Source: Candidatus Saccharimonadota bacterium (GTDB lineage Bacteria > Patescibacteriota > Microgenomatia > UBA1406 > GWC2-37-13). Taken from it: a stretch of DNA of 32,000 bases. The notes under the pieces were generated by a model. The model did not search any database, was not told where the DNA came from, and saw only the letters and a program-made list of their open reading frames with translations. Positions 3,903 through 27,516 of the stretch are shown one piece after another. The stretch covers positions 840,001 to 872,000 of the forward strand of contig CP064967.1 of assembly GCA_016699265.1 (NCBI GenBank), written 5' to 3'. A program made the translations under genes and the position numbers. How positions within the stretch are numbered: the stretch's first letter is position 1; each line of letters opens with the position of its first letter.

Positions 3903-4151
3903 TCAACCGCTGACTATAAGTTTTTCTTTCTGCAATTTGGTCCATTTCTTGACCCCGGCCTCTCGTTTAAGTGCGGAGCTTTTACTTATATGCTTTTCTG
4001 AGTAGACCAGAGTTACCGGTTTTTTTGCTCGAGTATATTTCGCACCTCTTGTGCCTATCGAGTTATGCTCCTTAAGACGCTTGTCTAAGTTGTTAGTAAT
4101 GCCCGAATAAAGAGAGTTATCAGAGCATCGAAGAATATAAAAGTAATACAT
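3903..4151 (-). CDS. Stand-alone GIY-YIG nuclease-domain protein (82 aa)
   Basis: N-terminus MYYFYILRCSDNSLYSGITNNLDKRLKEHN matches the GIY..YIG..R..H/E pattern of the small UPF0213/YhbQ-like GIY-YIG proteins. Confidence 0.85.
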   Translation of the reverse strand: MYYFYILRCSDNSLYSGITNNLDKRLKEHNSIGTRGAKYTRAKKPVTLVYSEKHISKSSALKREAGVKKWTKLQKEKLIVSG

Positions 4152-24503: not shown

Positions 24504-24517
24504 TTGCTCCCCCGCGT
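24504..24517. repeat. Distal copy of the tRNA-Asn 3'-end sequence (ttgctcccccgcgt)
   Basis: 14/14 identity with 27060-27073 and 12/12 identity (gctcccccgcgt) with 27443-27454 inside the tRNA gene. It sits exactly in the gap between two genes. Confidence 0.7.
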
Positions 24518-24520
24518 AAA

Positions 24521-24814: not shown

Positions 24815-25035
24815 TTCCGAAGATTGAAAATGGTGATCATAGTCGAACCAAAACAGTAGAAATGCTCCCCCAGGTTGAAGCATTCAGGAACCACAAAATC
24901 GAATTTAACATCTCGTTAATAGACATAGAGTCTCTTTGCTCATTTTATCATTTGCATACAAATAATCTTTGACCACATAAAAAACTTGTGATAGACACTT
25001 TATGCAAATTCAAAGAATATGTTAAGCTTACCTAT

Positions 25036-25593: not shown

Positions 25594-27004
25594 TCATTGG
25601 TCTGATTGCAAAGCATTAACTTTCACCTCCAAAAGTAGTTCAATTTCCCGAGTTCGTTCCTGACCATCTCCAAGTATCGCATATCCAAATTTACCTCTTC
25701 CAAATTTTGATCTCATTGACTCAGTAAATACTACTCCTGCTTTTTCTGCCTCCATTGGATAAATAATATCTGAAAGCGCTTCCTTCAACTGAGCATAAGA
25801 AATACCATGAAGATTTTGTCTTATAAACTTGTCATTTGTCCTAATTGAAACTTCTTCTTCCCAATTATCTCCATACAAAAGTTTTGCCAAATCAACAACA
25901 TAGCTCATACTTGTTCGTCTTAAGTTAGCCTCGGTGGGTGATATTTGGCCGTCTGTTGCTAATATATAATCCGTATCGTACCAACCTCTATAACCTTCCG
26001 CACTTAATTCTTCTCCAACAGCAGAAGTAAATTTCCTAAGTGTATCAGCTTGTGTTTCATCAAACAAACCTTTTCCAGCAACGCATCCATAAAACCTACT
26101 TCCTCACCATCATGACGAATGACCATCGCGTCAATAGCTTGAACTTCAACCGTACCATCCACAGTAACAATTGCGTCGACGCTAGGATGTGCGCCATGGT
26201 GATTGAAGTCTACATCTATTCTTTCTTCAACTACCACTTTATCATTATGAAAAGACCATTAGCACGGATTTTTCCTCGCATTTCTTCTAACTTTTCTGGC
26301 GTGTCTACTTGCTCTTGTTTGAAAACATTCACACCAATACCAGCTCCACCTGAGTTTGCTTTAAAAACTACACCTCTACCACTTTCAATGAAATAGTCCG
26401 CTCTTGATAATGCGTCATCAACTGTATCACAAACATATCCTTCGGGGATTTTAATATCTAACTCTGGATGCTTAGCTTTAACTCTTTGTAATAAATCTCG
26501 TGAACCTACTTTTGTTTCAAAATATTCCGCAGCCGCAATCCCCTCATCGGTTGGGCTTTCTGGCGTTCTAAAATTTGCACCTCTTGATCGCAGGTTATCC
26601 ACTAAACCTTGAAATTGAGGAGTATACCCAAAAGGCACCACTTGCACATCTTCTGCTCTATCAATCTCATTAACGAGCTCCTGAAAAACACCCTCATCAG
26701 AAACAATATCACTTGAAAGTCCCGCATCGGTTTCATGCGGCACTAATAGTCTAGCATTCTTAAATCCAAAAAGAGTAGAGATGTCAGATATAAATTCAGG
26801 ATCAAGTGCTCTAGGTAATAGTACAATTTTGTCATCACCAAACCACATAAAATCCATATCGGCTTCATCAATATCGGATTCTACGAATTCTAATCTCTGT
26901 GATTCTGGAACAAATCTATCAACAGGAGAGAAAAACTCTCGGTCATTTCCCACAACTATCGATTTTATTGGAGGTCGTGAAGGCCCACGTTCTAAATCTG
27001 GCAT
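25594..27004 (-). pseudogene. ATP-grasp family ligase (pre-ATP-grasp plus ATP-grasp, PGM1-like?) broken into three ORFs by two 1-nt frameshifts
   Basis: ORFs 26231..27004, 26004..26237 and 25594..26067 read on as a single protein if one A is added to the A4 run at 26250-26253 (...RANGLFHNDKVVVEERIDV...) and one to the A4 run at 26091-26094 (...GEEVGFYGCVAGKGLFDETQ...). The protein has a GVVFKANSGGAGIGV loop and a DTDYIL...EANLRRT segment typical of ATP-grasp enzymes. Confidence 0.7.
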
Positions 27005-27059: not shown

Positions 27060-27075
27060 TTGCTCCCCCGCGTGG
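27060..27075. repeat. Middle copy of the tRNA-Asn 3'-end sequence (ttgctcccccgcgtgg)
   Basis: 14/14 identity (gctcccccgcgtgg) with 27443-27456 in the tRNA gene. It lies 2 nt from the left inverted repeat of the GIY-YIG element. Confidence 0.8.
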
Positions 27076-27077
27076 TA

Positions 27078-27098
27078 TCCTTCGCTGAAGCTACAGAT
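27078..27098. repeat. Left terminal inverted repeat of the GIY-YIG element
   Basis: See 27076..27440. Confidence 0.6.
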
Positions 27099-27117
27099 AC
27101 CTATCTTAACAGAACAA

Positions 27118-27375
27118 TCATCTTTCTTTAAAGCTCCTCACCAGACGTTTATATGCGAATGCTTTACCTGATCCAGATTTTAAGTACAGTTCAAAATCTT
27201 TCGCTCCTTTTAAATTGGGAAATGCGCAGTACCACACCAACTTCCATGGAATATGAGGCTTGGTTGATAGTGATAAGCCGTCATTATGCATTTTAAATCT
27301 TTCTTTTAAATTTGGGCTGTGCCCGTAGTAAAAGATTTTAGATTTTGAACTGTACAAAATGTATGTATAGTACAT
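27118..27375 (-). CDS. Stand-alone GIY-YIG nuclease-domain protein (85 aa)
   Basis: MYYTYILYSSKSKIFYYGHSPNLKERFKMHN carries the GIY-YIG motifs. It is only distantly related to the copy at 3903..4151. Confidence 0.85.
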   Translation of the reverse strand: MYYTYILYSSKSKIFYYGHSPNLKERFKMHNDGLSLSTKPHIPWKLVWYCAFPNLKGAKDFELYLKSGSGKAFAYKRLVRSFKER

Positions 27376-27419
27376 ATGGCGCCAGCCGTCTGCCGTTTAC
27401 AACTTTAGACGGCTTAGTC

Positions 27420-27440
27420 ATCTGGAGCTTTAGCGAAAGA
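27420..27440. repeat. Right terminal inverted repeat of the GIY-YIG element, abutting the encoded CCA end of tRNA-Asn
   Basis: See 27076..27440. Confidence 0.6.
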
Positions 27441-27516
27441 TGGCTCCCCCGCGTGGACTCGAACCACGAACCTTATTCTTAACAGGAATCTGCTCTGCCA
27501 ATTGAGCTACAGGGGA
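27441..27516 (-). tRNA. tRNA-Asn (anticodon GTT), CCA encoded
   Basis: Minus strand reads TCCCCTG-TA-GCTC-AATTGGCA-GAGC-A-GATTC-CTGTTAA-GAATA-AGGTT-CGTGG-TTCGAGT-CCACG-CGGGGGA-GCCA. It folds as a cloverleaf with a 7-bp acceptor stem, T-loop TTCGAGT and anticodon loop CT-GTT-AA. Confidence 0.9.

Follow-up and report, generated by a model that had tools for sequence, protein, structure and literature searches.

The locus described here lies on the minus strand of a 32,000-nucleotide stretch of DNA from a Candidatus Saccharimonadota bacterium (contig CP064967.1), hereafter called the window. In this orientation, a tRNA-Asn gene is followed by a 367-bp unit, whose limits (27076-27442) were set from the two copies of a direct repeat. 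The following features are distinguished, in order of reading along the minus strand:

27441-27516, minus strand: intact tRNA-Asn(GTT), the target gene (ARAGORN; Rfam RF00005, 59.3 bits)
27443-27456, minus strand: DR1, the 14-bp direct repeat inside the tRNA gene, at its positions 61-74 (exact repeat)
27076-27442, minus strand: probable mobile unit of 367 bp, with left-end hairpin, extra hairpin, ORF and right-end hairpin
27419-27442, minus strand: left end (LE), inverted repeat/hairpin (conservation and covariation)
27385-27413, minus strand: additional GC-rich hairpin, GCCGTCT...AGACGGC, located after LE and before the ATG (DNA fold)
27118-27375, minus strand: predicted GIY-YIG nuclease gene, 85 codons plus stop, UPF0213/Slx1 type (Pfam PF01541)
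27119-27137, minus strand: third, degenerate end sequence, oriented like RE (89% complementary to 27424-27442)
27074-27101, minus strand: right end (RE), inverted repeat/hairpin (conservation and covariation)
27062-27075, minus strand: DR2, the same 14 bp of the tRNA 3' end, repeated at the far border of the unit (exact repeat)

The GIY-YIG ORF is the sole ORF of the unit, which contains no integrase. The unit starts directly after C74 of tRNA-Asn, and its first two bases, CA, complete the encoded CCA. An earlier note on this DNA had proposed that the insertion leaves the tRNA intact, and ARAGORN indeed recovers the gene as complete, in agreement with its Rfam tRNA score. The same note had reported a 14-bp direct repeat of the tRNA end at both borders, and this was found to be exact: GCTCCCCCGCGTGG is present at 27062-27075 and again at 27443-27456, where it forms part of the functional tRNA-Asn (with numbering anchored on the T-loop). 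The 14 duplicated nucleotides, positions 61-74, comprise the 3' strand of the T-stem, the 3' strand of the acceptor, the discriminator and C74. When up to two mismatches are allowed, GCTCCCCCGCGTGG has three matches in the window, against 0.05 expected in shuffles. The third of these, at 24506-24519 (12/14), had been missed in the earlier reading.

Both ends of the unit are inverted with respect to each other. Direct reading confirms the inverted repeats previously described, with 18 of 21 positions matched between 27078-27098 and 27420-27440, and a repeat search yields a longer pair, 27077-27103 and 27415-27441, at 81%. Each of these repeats is itself an imperfect palindrome, the outer stem of which extends into the flanking tRNA-derived bases. 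On the minus strand, LE reads CA-TCT-TTC-GCT-AA-AGC-TCC-AGA-TG, its family consensus being TCYTTCGCYAARGCTWCRGA, and RE reads GGTATCT-GTA-GCT-TC-AGC-GAA-GGATACC, the last two bases (CC) falling within DR2. LE and RE are mirror images, in which the conserved G-N-A internal loops are carried by the strand that ends, 3', at the terminus concerned. The family-consensus end pattern has only two matches in the 32 kb, the LE and RE sites, in inverted orientation.

Among related loci (see below), a strict structural pattern is kept at LE in 74 of 81 and at RE in 63 of 81. Both stems show covariation: in 42 LE sequences, 89.5% of the cells are paired and 6 of 10 pairs have changed on both sides, and in 37 RE sequences the corresponding values are 94.3% and 7 of 10 (for each end, 0 of 500 shuffles reached the observed score). 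In addition, the stems co-vary with the flanking tRNA bases, the LE outer stem doing so with the terminal bases of the tRNA. LE variants track the tRNA type, for example AA..TT at Ser genes, CCG..CGG at Gly genes and TA..TA at many of the Gln genes. Of 72 elements, 20 have a segment ahead of RE that pairs with DR2. By nearest-neighbour calculation the end hairpins are weakly stable (z -0.6 to -1.5), so it is covariation that carries the case for their folding. Non-Watson-Crick pairs were too few for G-T versus A-C asymmetry to identify the strand that folds (3 versus 0 at LE, 5 versus 2 at RE). A search with the covariance models of Rfam 15 returned the tRNA only, and nothing on 27074-27101 or 27419-27442 at E-values up to 10.

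Two further hairpin-like sequences lie inside the unit. The GC-rich stem singled out in the earlier note is present, with GCCGTCT at 27385-27391 and AGACGGC at 27407-27413; the position given for it then, 27389-27417, was off by 4 nt. Folded as DNA, it reaches -7.5 kcal/mol (z -3.8). It shares CGTCTAAAGTTG...AGACG with a tandemly repeated, LE-derived unit of a related locus (L022), and it is missing from most family members. This stem is a lineage-specific, degenerate additional hairpin of the left-end type. The earlier note had considered it a possible regulatory or end-recognition structure; it is not a conserved feature of the family. The other sequence, the degenerate end copy at 27119-27137, overlaps the end of the ORF, namely its final codons (SFKER) together with the stop; a complete hairpin, TCTGTAGCTTTAGCGAAAGA, is still formed by the corresponding codons (SVALAKD) of 4 among 81 relatives.

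The encoded protein of 85 amino acids matches the GIY-YIG profile of Pfam (PF01541) over profile positions 1-74 of 78, scoring 55.9 bits where the cut-off is 22.6 (E 5.5e-15). The residues of catalytic type (the two Tyr motifs, Arg, His/Tyr and Glu) are kept: Y3, Y5, Y16, G18, R26, H30 and E62 are invariant in 39 homologues, and the AlphaFold model has a pLDDT of 93.7. In an hmmsearch against the PDB, the best match was 1zg2 (BH0048; E 6.6e-8), followed by 1ywl (EF2693; 3.4e-4) and Slx1 (1.7e-3 to 7.6e-3). Similarly, Foldseek placed 1zg2 and the Slx1 nuclease domain first, with a probability of 1.0, the latter (6seh/7cq3) at a TM-score of 0.67-0.69 and an rmsd of 1.5-2.3 A, and gave I-TevI a probability of 0.25. 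Judged from these profile and model comparisons, the element protein is a predicted nuclease that is nearest to the UPF0213/Slx1 branch, whose members are structure-specific, and far from I-TevI, which is in line with the UPF0213-type assignment made in the earlier note. No family for this protein is found in NCBIfam or PHROGs. Among its relatives, the ORF is intact in 138 of 140 distinct sequences, with dN/dS of 0.02-0.25, which indicates that the nuclease is kept under purifying selection. The interval between the tRNA and the ATG contains no promoter-like or terminator-like site. The window carries another GIY-YIG gene (3906-4151), which is of the ordinary kind; its flanks, named in the earlier note as a comparison, have none of the features of the element, neither inverted ends nor a duplication.

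The unit belongs to a family of 163 related loci, all of which were retrieved through the nuclease gene. Elements of this family measure about 325-440 bp and encode nucleases of 80-108 residues. Of 146 evaluable copies, 118 lie 25-200 bp behind a co-oriented tRNA gene and none is inverted. Of the 80 genome loci, 54 have a co-oriented tRNA that ends at most 200 bp before the ATG, as do 61 of the 78 metagenome loci that could be evaluated; the distance is mostly 25-65 bp. Six tRNA kinds are occupied (Gln, Asn, Ser, Gly, Met and Trp). At least 10 nt of the element's own tRNA 3' end are repeated exactly beyond the ORF at 43 of 54 genome loci and 48 of 59 metagenome loci, about 80% in all; the corresponding controls gave 0/54 on the other strand and 2/54 upstream. 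This repeat typically covers positions 61-74, is 13-16 bp long as a rule, with a modal length of 14, and differs in sequence by tRNA, each copy matching the local tRNA gene. The occupied tRNAs have C61, C62 and C74 in 95-96 of 97 cases each and G73 in 71 of 97, and the insertion point is constant at 74/75, splitting the tRNA target. The earlier note had advised a search for additional copies; the same ends, duplication and gene recur at more than 100 loci and in six tRNA kinds, with clean controls. This is the opposite of ends and repeat being absent from other gene-bearing loci, with no more copies anywhere.

Several observations bear on mobility. The closest homologue of the window's protein (84% amino acid identity) resides at a tRNA-Gln gene, with a perfect 16-bp repeat. 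Elements that are 90-92% identical occupy tRNA-Ser(CGA) in L021 and tRNA-Ser(GCT) in L122 and L152, the other gene being empty in each. At tRNA-Ser(GCT), the empty L021 and the occupied L152 have 183 of 184 nt in common over the upstream region and the tRNA, the difference between them being a 374-bp insert that follows C74 in L152. A conserved 31-nt block is located 74-75 nt beyond the insertion point in both, and a global alignment of the downstream flanks is not significant (15.5 versus 12.4 +/- 3.1), so that downstream orthology is supported by this block only. An inversion between the two tRNA-Ser genes, which might have accounted for the difference between L021 and L031/L122, was discarded, since in each genome DR2 corresponds to the tRNA beside it. 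The family also includes tandem copies and decayed or truncated ones. Two MAGs contain two copies each: those of the first (L051/L075) are 86% identical, and those of the second (L062/L067) do not appear in the list of pairs with at least 85% identity. No near-identical copies were found at different tRNAs, as pairs with 99-100% identity always share the tRNA and the upstream flank. Given that copies within one MAG are only 86% identical, no very recent jump is demonstrated.

At the window's own locus, the element is present in every related contig found (L001-L011, L103 and L104), with 100% identity over a 365-bp slice centred on the ORF. DR2 is kept at the same place in 10 of 10 related contigs, and the tRNA-side flank varies among them. 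An exact 28-nt pattern for the empty site (T-loop and 3' end of tRNA-Asn plus the flank after DR2) had 0 matches in metagenome contigs. Of the empty alleles that the earlier note advised looking for, one was thus found for a sister element at tRNA-Ser(GCT) and none for this locus.

Taken together, the recurring ends, the local duplication, the single gene and the sister empty allele support the proposal, already made in the earlier note, of an autonomous transposon or homing cassette. Very probably the unit is mobile and depends for this on the nuclease that it encodes. More specifically, 27076-27442 is probably a member of a family of very small, autonomous mobile elements found in Patescibacteria, which are site- and orientation-specific, carry their own nuclease and would spread by a transposition-like route.

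Other explanations account for part of these data. In one of them, the unit is a homing cassette: the nuclease would attack empty tRNA genes only, and the element would be copied from an occupied allele by break repair, in which the tRNA gene provides homology on the left and the 14-bp DR2 a built-in stretch of micro-homology on the right; the role of the inverted hairpins would then lie in expression, in mRNA stability or in making the occupied allele immune, and not in recombination. GIY-YIG enzymes are the classic homing nucleases, T4 SegB acts on a tRNA gene cluster (PMC2330249), and for homing a nuclease alone suffices. In addition, the presumed recognition site is split by the insertion, so that occupied alleles would be immune, the correlation of LE variants with tRNA type is expected of lineages that home to one target, and the tracking of the local tRNA by DR2 fits annealing to the recipient's own positions 61-74. 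Nevertheless, homing genes have no need of conserved inverted ends with structural covariation and junction-spanning stems, and homologous repair proceeds without target duplication, whereas a duplication of 13-16 bp is the rule here. Exact local duplications in six tRNA kinds would moreover require repeated non-homologous founding events, the protein lacks the DNA-binding domains that give long recognition sites and is nearer to Slx1 than to I-TevI, and a tblastn search for phage or plasmid carriers, which could deliver donor alleles, was without match. Homing is rather unlikely. We consider it quite improbable, in turn, that the cassette is a passenger moved by an enzyme encoded elsewhere (a tyrosine integrase, a Cas1-type casposase or an Xer-type recombinase), with the GIY-YIG gene as cargo, for example for addiction or defence. 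This tRNA-Asn gene is a hot spot of integration, as in strain variants other islands lie between the tRNA and the element, each bordered by a 6-10 nt piece of the tRNA 3' end, and further partial tRNA ends occur downstream in the window; the inverted ends, the duplication length and the tRNA 3'-end target also recall casposons. The island of L001 carries a tyrosine integrase and is separate from the element. Against a passenger, the nuclease is the only gene that is always found between the ends, and its intactness and strong purifying selection are unlike those of non-autonomous cargo. The junctions of the other islands are different (positions about 67-76), as is their end motif, and they have no hairpin ends; most loci have no integrase within 3 kb. 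tRNA-targeting integrases usually cross over in the T-loop, which the duplication excludes.

It is least probable, to the point of being very unlikely, that the unit is not mobile, and is instead a vertically inherited, tRNA-linked accessory gene whose hairpins act in RNA (in processing after the tRNA or in mRNA stabilisation), with DR2 as a 3'-processing signal, similar to a tRNA minihelix, that is kept by selection. This would agree with the strictly co-directional orientation and the lack of an own promoter, with a hairpin that directly adjoins the tRNA 3' end, and with the slower evolution of DR2 compared with synonymous sites; where it occurs, the pairing of the pre-RE segment with DR2 could build a minihelix-like structure. 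It is contradicted by orthologous empty and occupied tRNA-Ser genes in near-identical contexts, by related elements at different tRNAs and by tandem and truncated copies. Furthermore, the strand that carries the conserved G-N-A internal loops is not the same at LE as at RE, so that the two could not both act in a single transcript. Models based on integron attC sites, Xer/dif and IS200/IS605 were ruled out by the mirror-image hairpins, the 14-bp duplication and the absence of a tyrosine or HUH gene.

For the preferred reading, a small autonomous element with a transposition-like route, the following mechanism is proposed. The nuclease would recognise folded DNA, both in the hairpins extruded at the ends of the element and in the tRNA gene, at its T-arm/acceptor region. 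Its cuts in the target would be staggered by 14 nt, falling at 60/61 and, on the opposite strand, at 74/75. The element would be cut 2 bp within the hairpin stems, where its junctions lie; joining is assumed to be completed by host ligase and polymerase. Filling of the stagger by host enzymes would produce the 14-bp duplication. The nuclease gene may lack a promoter of its own and be transcribed from that of the tRNA, which would account for the fixed orientation. Slx1 cuts branched and stem-loop DNA close to the junction, and by analogy cutting of this kind fits element junctions that are buried in hairpin stems. A nuclease-initiated spread, as in Seg/Tev genes, is likewise plausible. Several points count against the transposition-like reading: the 85-residue protein has no separate DNA-binding domain, a single orientation is seen, although inverted ends predict both, no genome was found to have near-identical copies at two sites, and the window's own element is fixed in the related contigs found. 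Moreover, we know of no GIY-YIG enzyme that performs strand transfer. It is only tentatively, and with more reserve than conviction, that we suggest that a GIY-YIG nuclease of 80-108 residues may by itself be the mobility enzyme of a transposon, representing a new class of transposase and the smallest autonomous one (about 330 bp), with structure-specific cutting at a 14-nt stagger and joining by the host.

To our knowledge, all known prokaryotic transposons employ DDE, DEDD, HUH, serine, tyrosine or Cas1 enzymes, and GIY-YIG nucleases are known only as homing enzymes, as repair enzymes and as the nicking domain of the eukaryotic Penelope retroelements. The enzyme encoded here is outside the known transposase classes (DDE, DEDD, HUH, Ser, Tyr and Cas1), which places the unit outside every described insertion-sequence family. 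No element of this kind was found described in the open full-text literature, subscription-only papers being outside the scope of that search, and the family is possibly an undescribed and the smallest self-contained kind of mobile DNA. If one precise phosphodiester bond of tRNA genes is targeted by it across hundreds of uncultured species, this would be a new kind of mobile DNA. It would also assign a function to part of the large pool of small UPF0213/COG2827 nucleases and offer a minimal protein-plus-hairpin system for site-specific insertion beside a universally conserved gene. More generally, the family touches on genome plasticity in Patescibacteria: differences between close relatives start exactly at element borders, and islands accumulate at the same tRNA ends.

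Several known systems resemble the element in part. Like the homing genes of the Seg/I-TevI group, it is a selfish unit with a single GIY-YIG gene, and SegB is also linked to tRNA genes (PMC2330249). Proteins of that group, however, have 200-250 amino acids and separate DNA-binding domains and are phage-borne, and their genes have neither inverted hairpin ends nor a target duplication, whereas the element protein has 85 amino acids, consists of the catalytic domain only and has no phage match. UPF0213/YhbQ/Slx1 proteins (1zg2, 1ywl, 6seh/7cq3) provide the best matches to it in sequence and fold, but are treated as housekeeping or repair proteins, and none has been reported in a unit with inverted ends and a duplication; Slx1, in addition, needs Slx4 and has a RING domain.

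Casposons have inverted ends and a 14-15-bp target duplication, and insert at tRNA 3' ends. They differ in their size of 8-20 kb and in carrying Cas1 and a polymerase, the element having about 0.35 kb and no Cas1. With IS200/IS605, REP/RAYT, attC and CTX/Xer, the element has in common its small size and ends that would be recognised as folded structures and not in duplex form; its inner stem varies but stays paired, which is also seen in attC and REP. The enzymes of these systems are of the HUH or tyrosine type, in contrast to the GIY-YIG enzyme of the element, and IS200/IS605 has its hairpins on one strand at both ends and makes no duplication. Finally, islands of tyrosine integrases, which coexist with the element at tRNA-Asn, likewise insert at the tRNA 3' end, preserve the tRNA and leave a direct repeat. 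They encode an integrase and have junctions of 6-10 nt, here at about 67-76, whereas the element is marked by its 61-74 borders, its six tRNA kinds and its hairpin ends.

The unit at 27076-27442 on the minus strand, in which a single GIY-YIG gene lies between two inverted hairpin ends, is probably a mobile element that depends on its own nuclease. It follows the tRNA-Asn gene in the order given here.

Features of the locus, from the tRNA gene outward
27441-27516, minus strand: tRNA-Asn(GTT), the sole tRNA gene of the window (Rfam tRNA, 59.3 bits)
first feature downstream of tRNA-Asn, minus strand: encoded CCA
27419-27442, minus strand: imperfect palindrome, 20-24 nt long, after the CCA; the left end (LE)
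27385-27413, minus strand: GC-rich hairpin between the LE palindrome and the ORF
27375-27118, minus strand: GIY-YIG ORF of 85 codons (Pfam E 5.5e-15)
27074-27101, minus strand: second imperfect palindrome, beyond the ORF, the right end (RE)
27062-27075: distal repeat copy (DR2), GCTCCCCCGCGTGG in plus-strand reading, an exact copy of 27443-27456 in the tRNA

The tRNA repeat, the inverted ends and the GIY-YIG ORF that the earlier note had described are all present in the sequence. The duplicated 14 nt correspond to tRNA positions 61-74 (3' strands of the T-stem and the acceptor, discriminator, and C74), and shuffles give an expectation of 0.05 occurrences for this 14-mer. The LE and RE palindromes are inverted copies of one another, with 18 of 21 positions identical over the stretch compared in that note. 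The GC-rich stem that it reported exists as well, 4 nt away from the coordinates it had assigned. This hairpin has CGTCTAAAGTTG...AGACG in common with the repeat unit of L022 (L-numbers designate related loci or contigs carrying the element), and in our view it is a second LE hairpin in degenerate form and not something shared by the family.

The window's protein occurs in identical form on 21 contigs, and a protein search returned 461 relatives (65-84% identity) in many Patescibacteria lineages. Loci of the family, all retrieved via the gene, came from two independent scans. The first, covering a single genome for each species, detected at least 568 loci that encode a family member, 80 of which were fetched, and the second, of metagenome contigs, gave 80 further loci. 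A co-oriented tRNA ends at most 200 bp before the ATG in 54 of the 80 genome loci and in 61 of the 78 evaluable metagenome loci, and in most loci the distance from tRNA end to ATG is 25-65 bp. When evaluable loci are pooled, the tRNA is co-oriented in 118 of 146 and never in the opposite orientation. The tRNAs occupied are Gln(CTG/TTG), Asn, Ser (four anticodons), Gly (three anticodons), Met, and Trp. Past the ORF, 43/54 genome loci and 48/59 metagenome loci repeat 10 nt or more of the tRNA 3' end exactly, the modal length being 14 nt; the control counts were 0/54 on the opposite strand and 2/54 upstream of the tRNA. The repeat sequence tracks whichever tRNA adjoins and, upon T-loop anchoring, spans positions 61 to 74. 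Of 97 occupied tRNAs, 95-96 carry C61, C62, and C74 and 71 carry G73, whereas A73 predominates among the unoccupied tRNAs of the same loci. The taxonomic titles of many source records, which are metagenome bins, are doubtful: element-bearing records are often titled 'uncultured Gammaproteobacteria', 'Pseudomonadales' or 'Scalindua' (L012, L013, L022, L023, and others), although their proteins group with Patescibacteria. One element-bearing record is a Weeksellaceae bin (L089).

Occupancy is polymorphic, and insertion takes place in one orientation after C74 of particular tRNA genes, with tRNA positions 61-74 duplicated. The closest homologue (84% aa) is located not at tRNA-Asn but behind tRNA-Gln(TTG), with a perfect 16-bp repeat. 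The L021 element, behind tRNA-Ser(CGA), shares 90-92% DNA identity with those of L122 and L152, which follow tRNA-Ser(GCT). The tRNA-Ser(GCT) gene is identical in these three loci and is empty in L021; conversely, tRNA-Ser(CGA) is empty in L152. Over the upstream flank and tRNA-Ser(GCT), L021 and L152 have 183 of 184 nt in common, and the match breaks off precisely after C74, at which point L152 contains an additional 374 bp made up of the element and its repeat. A conserved block of 31 nt lies 74-75 nt past the insertion point in both, the remaining downstream flank being poorly conserved. DR2 fits the adjoining tRNA even where element lineages have diverged strongly at synonymous sites: the elements of L094 and L097 differ by a dS of 0.62, yet each DR2 matches its own tRNA at 14/14 positions. 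Such a fit requires turnover, re-insertion or co-conversion. There are also tandem and truncated copies: L072 has another LE and ORF start beyond DR2, an LE remnant was found in L013, and L056 and L080 have two right ends each. No very recent jump was caught among the loci retrieved, and for the window's own site no exact empty site was found, the element being fixed in all related contigs found.

Two contigs (L038 2781-3560 and L164 1-780) share 99% identity from the upstream flank across tRNA-Gln and the element to the end of DR2 and are unrelated from the first base past it, so the distal repeat also marks a recombination breakpoint.

The family consensus is (N)A-TCYTTCGCYAARGCTWCRGA for LE and TCCGWAGCTTTAGCGWAGGA-YA, followed by DR2, for RE. 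Each end is itself a hairpin: an outer stem leads through a 3x3 internal loop to an inner stem of 3 bp, which is capped by a loop of 2-8 nt. Nearest-neighbour energies are modest for the window's two end hairpins, and the case for them rests on covariation. For LE (42 sequences), 89.5% of cells are paired and 6/10 pairs have changed on both sides; for RE (37 sequences), the values are 94.3% and 7/10. In both cases 0/500 shuffles reach the score, and pairing falls to 14-52% in slid registers. These compensatory changes support both hairpins, to which Rfam gave no match. The invariant bases of the internal loop, G-N-A facing G-N-A, have their G-N-A strand on the strand with its 3' end at that terminus (bottom at LE, top at RE), which makes the two ends true mirror images. 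A single transcript could not use both, a point in favour of their being recognised as DNA. In addition, both outer stems cross the junction between element and target. That of LE pairs with tRNA bases 72/73-76 (mean extension 3.7 bp, against 1.6 +/- 0.14 with permuted flanks) and tracks the discriminator (AGCCA..TGGCT or AACCA..TGGTT), and that of RE pairs with C61-C62 of DR2.

Of 72 elements, 20 have a segment, set at a constant distance ahead of RE (35-45 nt before DR2), that is complementary to at least 6 nt of the element's own DR2, with a mean of 4.71 against 4.07 +/- 0.09 when permuted (an excess of about 7 sd). The segment occurs in L012, L025, L028, L065, L076, L084, L134, L157, and others (e.g., GGGTAG..CCTACCC), and is lacking in the window copy; it may be an adaptation, an inverted copy of the target or a tRNA-minihelix mimic. 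The left-end region is rearrangement-prone: the 3' half of LE plus spacer is present in three to five tandem copies between LE and the ATG (L022, L112, L137, L138), and right-end-type hairpins are nested in LE at five loci (L055, L063, L094, L133, L166), with a nested insert that L063 (at Ser) and L094 (at Asn) share without a mismatch for 27 nt or more despite the difference in tRNA. In L050, L054, L074, and L087, a right-end-type hairpin, TCTGTAGCTTTAGCGAAAGA, lies near codons 79-85 and encodes the conserved C-terminal peptide SVALAKD; window positions 27119-27137 are a degenerate version, coding for SFKER and a stop.

The nuclease gene is under purifying selection: 138 of 140 distinct ORFs are intact (79-108 codons), and dN/dS is 0.02-0.25 over twelve informative pairs. 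Residues Y3, Y5, Y16, G18, R26, H30, and E62 are invariant. The AlphaFold prediction has high confidence (pLDDT 93.7), and its top structural matches are the UPF0213 protein BH0048 and the Slx1 nuclease domain (prob 1.0, TM up to 0.69, rmsd 1.5-2.3 A). The match to I-TevI is far weaker in structure (prob 0.25), and also at sequence level. Phage and plasmid collections gave no match to the nuclease, and no promoter-like or terminator-like site was found in the tRNA-to-ATG interval.

A second GIY-YIG ORF of the window (3906-4151, minus strand, 82 aa, 31% identical to that of the element) has no hairpin ends, direct repeat or nearby tRNA, and appears to be an ordinary stand-alone superfamily member. 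In L094/L095, a small GIY-YIG gene of another family (2089-2334, 81 aa) ends 4 nt before the start of tRNA-Asn and is preceded by the palindrome GCTTCGCATAGCGAAGC (2020-2060), a hint that other small GIY-YIG families may also be linked to tRNA genes and hairpins.

Ten fetched contigs with the exact protein are identical in the 363-bp unit and in all sequence beyond DR2; their tRNA side varies, and homology to the window restarts within the final 6-10 nt of the tRNA. Different islands lie between tRNA-Asn and LE, at the equivalent of window 27441-27443, in the strain variants L001-L006, L009, L011, L103, and L104, with the GIY-YIG unit identical. They contain tyrosine integrase, Ymh, and methyltransferase; cation efflux and HXXEE; a 475-bp MtN3_slv cassette; or PDDEXK and unknowns, and each joins via only 6-10 nt of the tRNA end. 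The pattern is seen again in other lineages (L013, L014, L019, L029, L039, L085). Downstream of the element, the window has partial copies of the tRNA-Asn 3' end, ACGCGGGGGAGC (24506-24519) and GGGGGAGC preceded by GTTCCTGAATGCTTCAACCT (24864-24893), the latter resembling the right end of the tRNA-element islands in L002, L003, L006, and L009. The tRNA thus heads a row of segments, each closed by a 3'-end piece; one of them holds a single ORF of ~89 aa. The pre-ATP-grasp-like gene (25594-27004, minus strand), of 470 aa in L001, L003, L007, and L008, is disrupted in the window, where two deletions, each of a single T within a T run, leave separate ORFs of 257 and 157 aa; this is either a homopolymer assembly error or a pseudogene.

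How such a unit might move can be proposed as follows. The Slx1-like nuclease would recognise folded DNA, acting on the hairpins extruded at the ends and on the T-arm/acceptor region of a tRNA gene, which could fold when single-stranded during heavy transcription or replication. Cleavage of the target would fall at 60/61 on one strand and at 74/75 on the other, and that of the element 2 bp within the stems that span the junctions. Should a resident element be cut with this geometry at its two repeat copies, its excision would leave 14-nt cohesive ends on donor, element, and cut target; ligase alone could then suffice to close the donor precisely and to join the element into the target. The gene would be expressed by read-through from the tRNA promoter, which would select a single orientation.

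Because the inverted ends are conserved and structured, and because the local duplications are exact in six kinds of tRNA, we consider this transposition-like route more likely than homing. Homing with DR2 as a built-in micro-homology arm would account for the nuclease-only content and the tRNA-type-specific LE variants, but it leaves the hairpin ends unexplained, and we consider it rather unlikely. The integrase-type islands at the same tRNA could point to mobilisation by an enzyme encoded elsewhere; however, their junctions are different and the nuclease gene is too well conserved for cargo, and we regard this explanation as improbable. A non-mobile unit with a role at the RNA level conflicts with the existence of both empty and occupied alleles and with the mirror-image ends, and has very little probability.

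In the open-access full-text literature, no description of such an element was found, the nearest item being T4 SegB. The element's inverted ends, 14-bp duplication, and tRNA 3' target are somewhat like those of a casposon or insertion sequence, and its GIY-YIG nuclease is somewhat like the enzyme of a homing gene. However, it is without a known transposase class, unlike insertion sequences, without Cas1, unlike casposons, and without integrase, unlike tRNA-targeting islands, and it has a duplication, whereas homing genes have none. Since it departs from each of these systems in a defining feature and no description was found in that literature, we regard the element as a new kind, with a mechanism that we infer.
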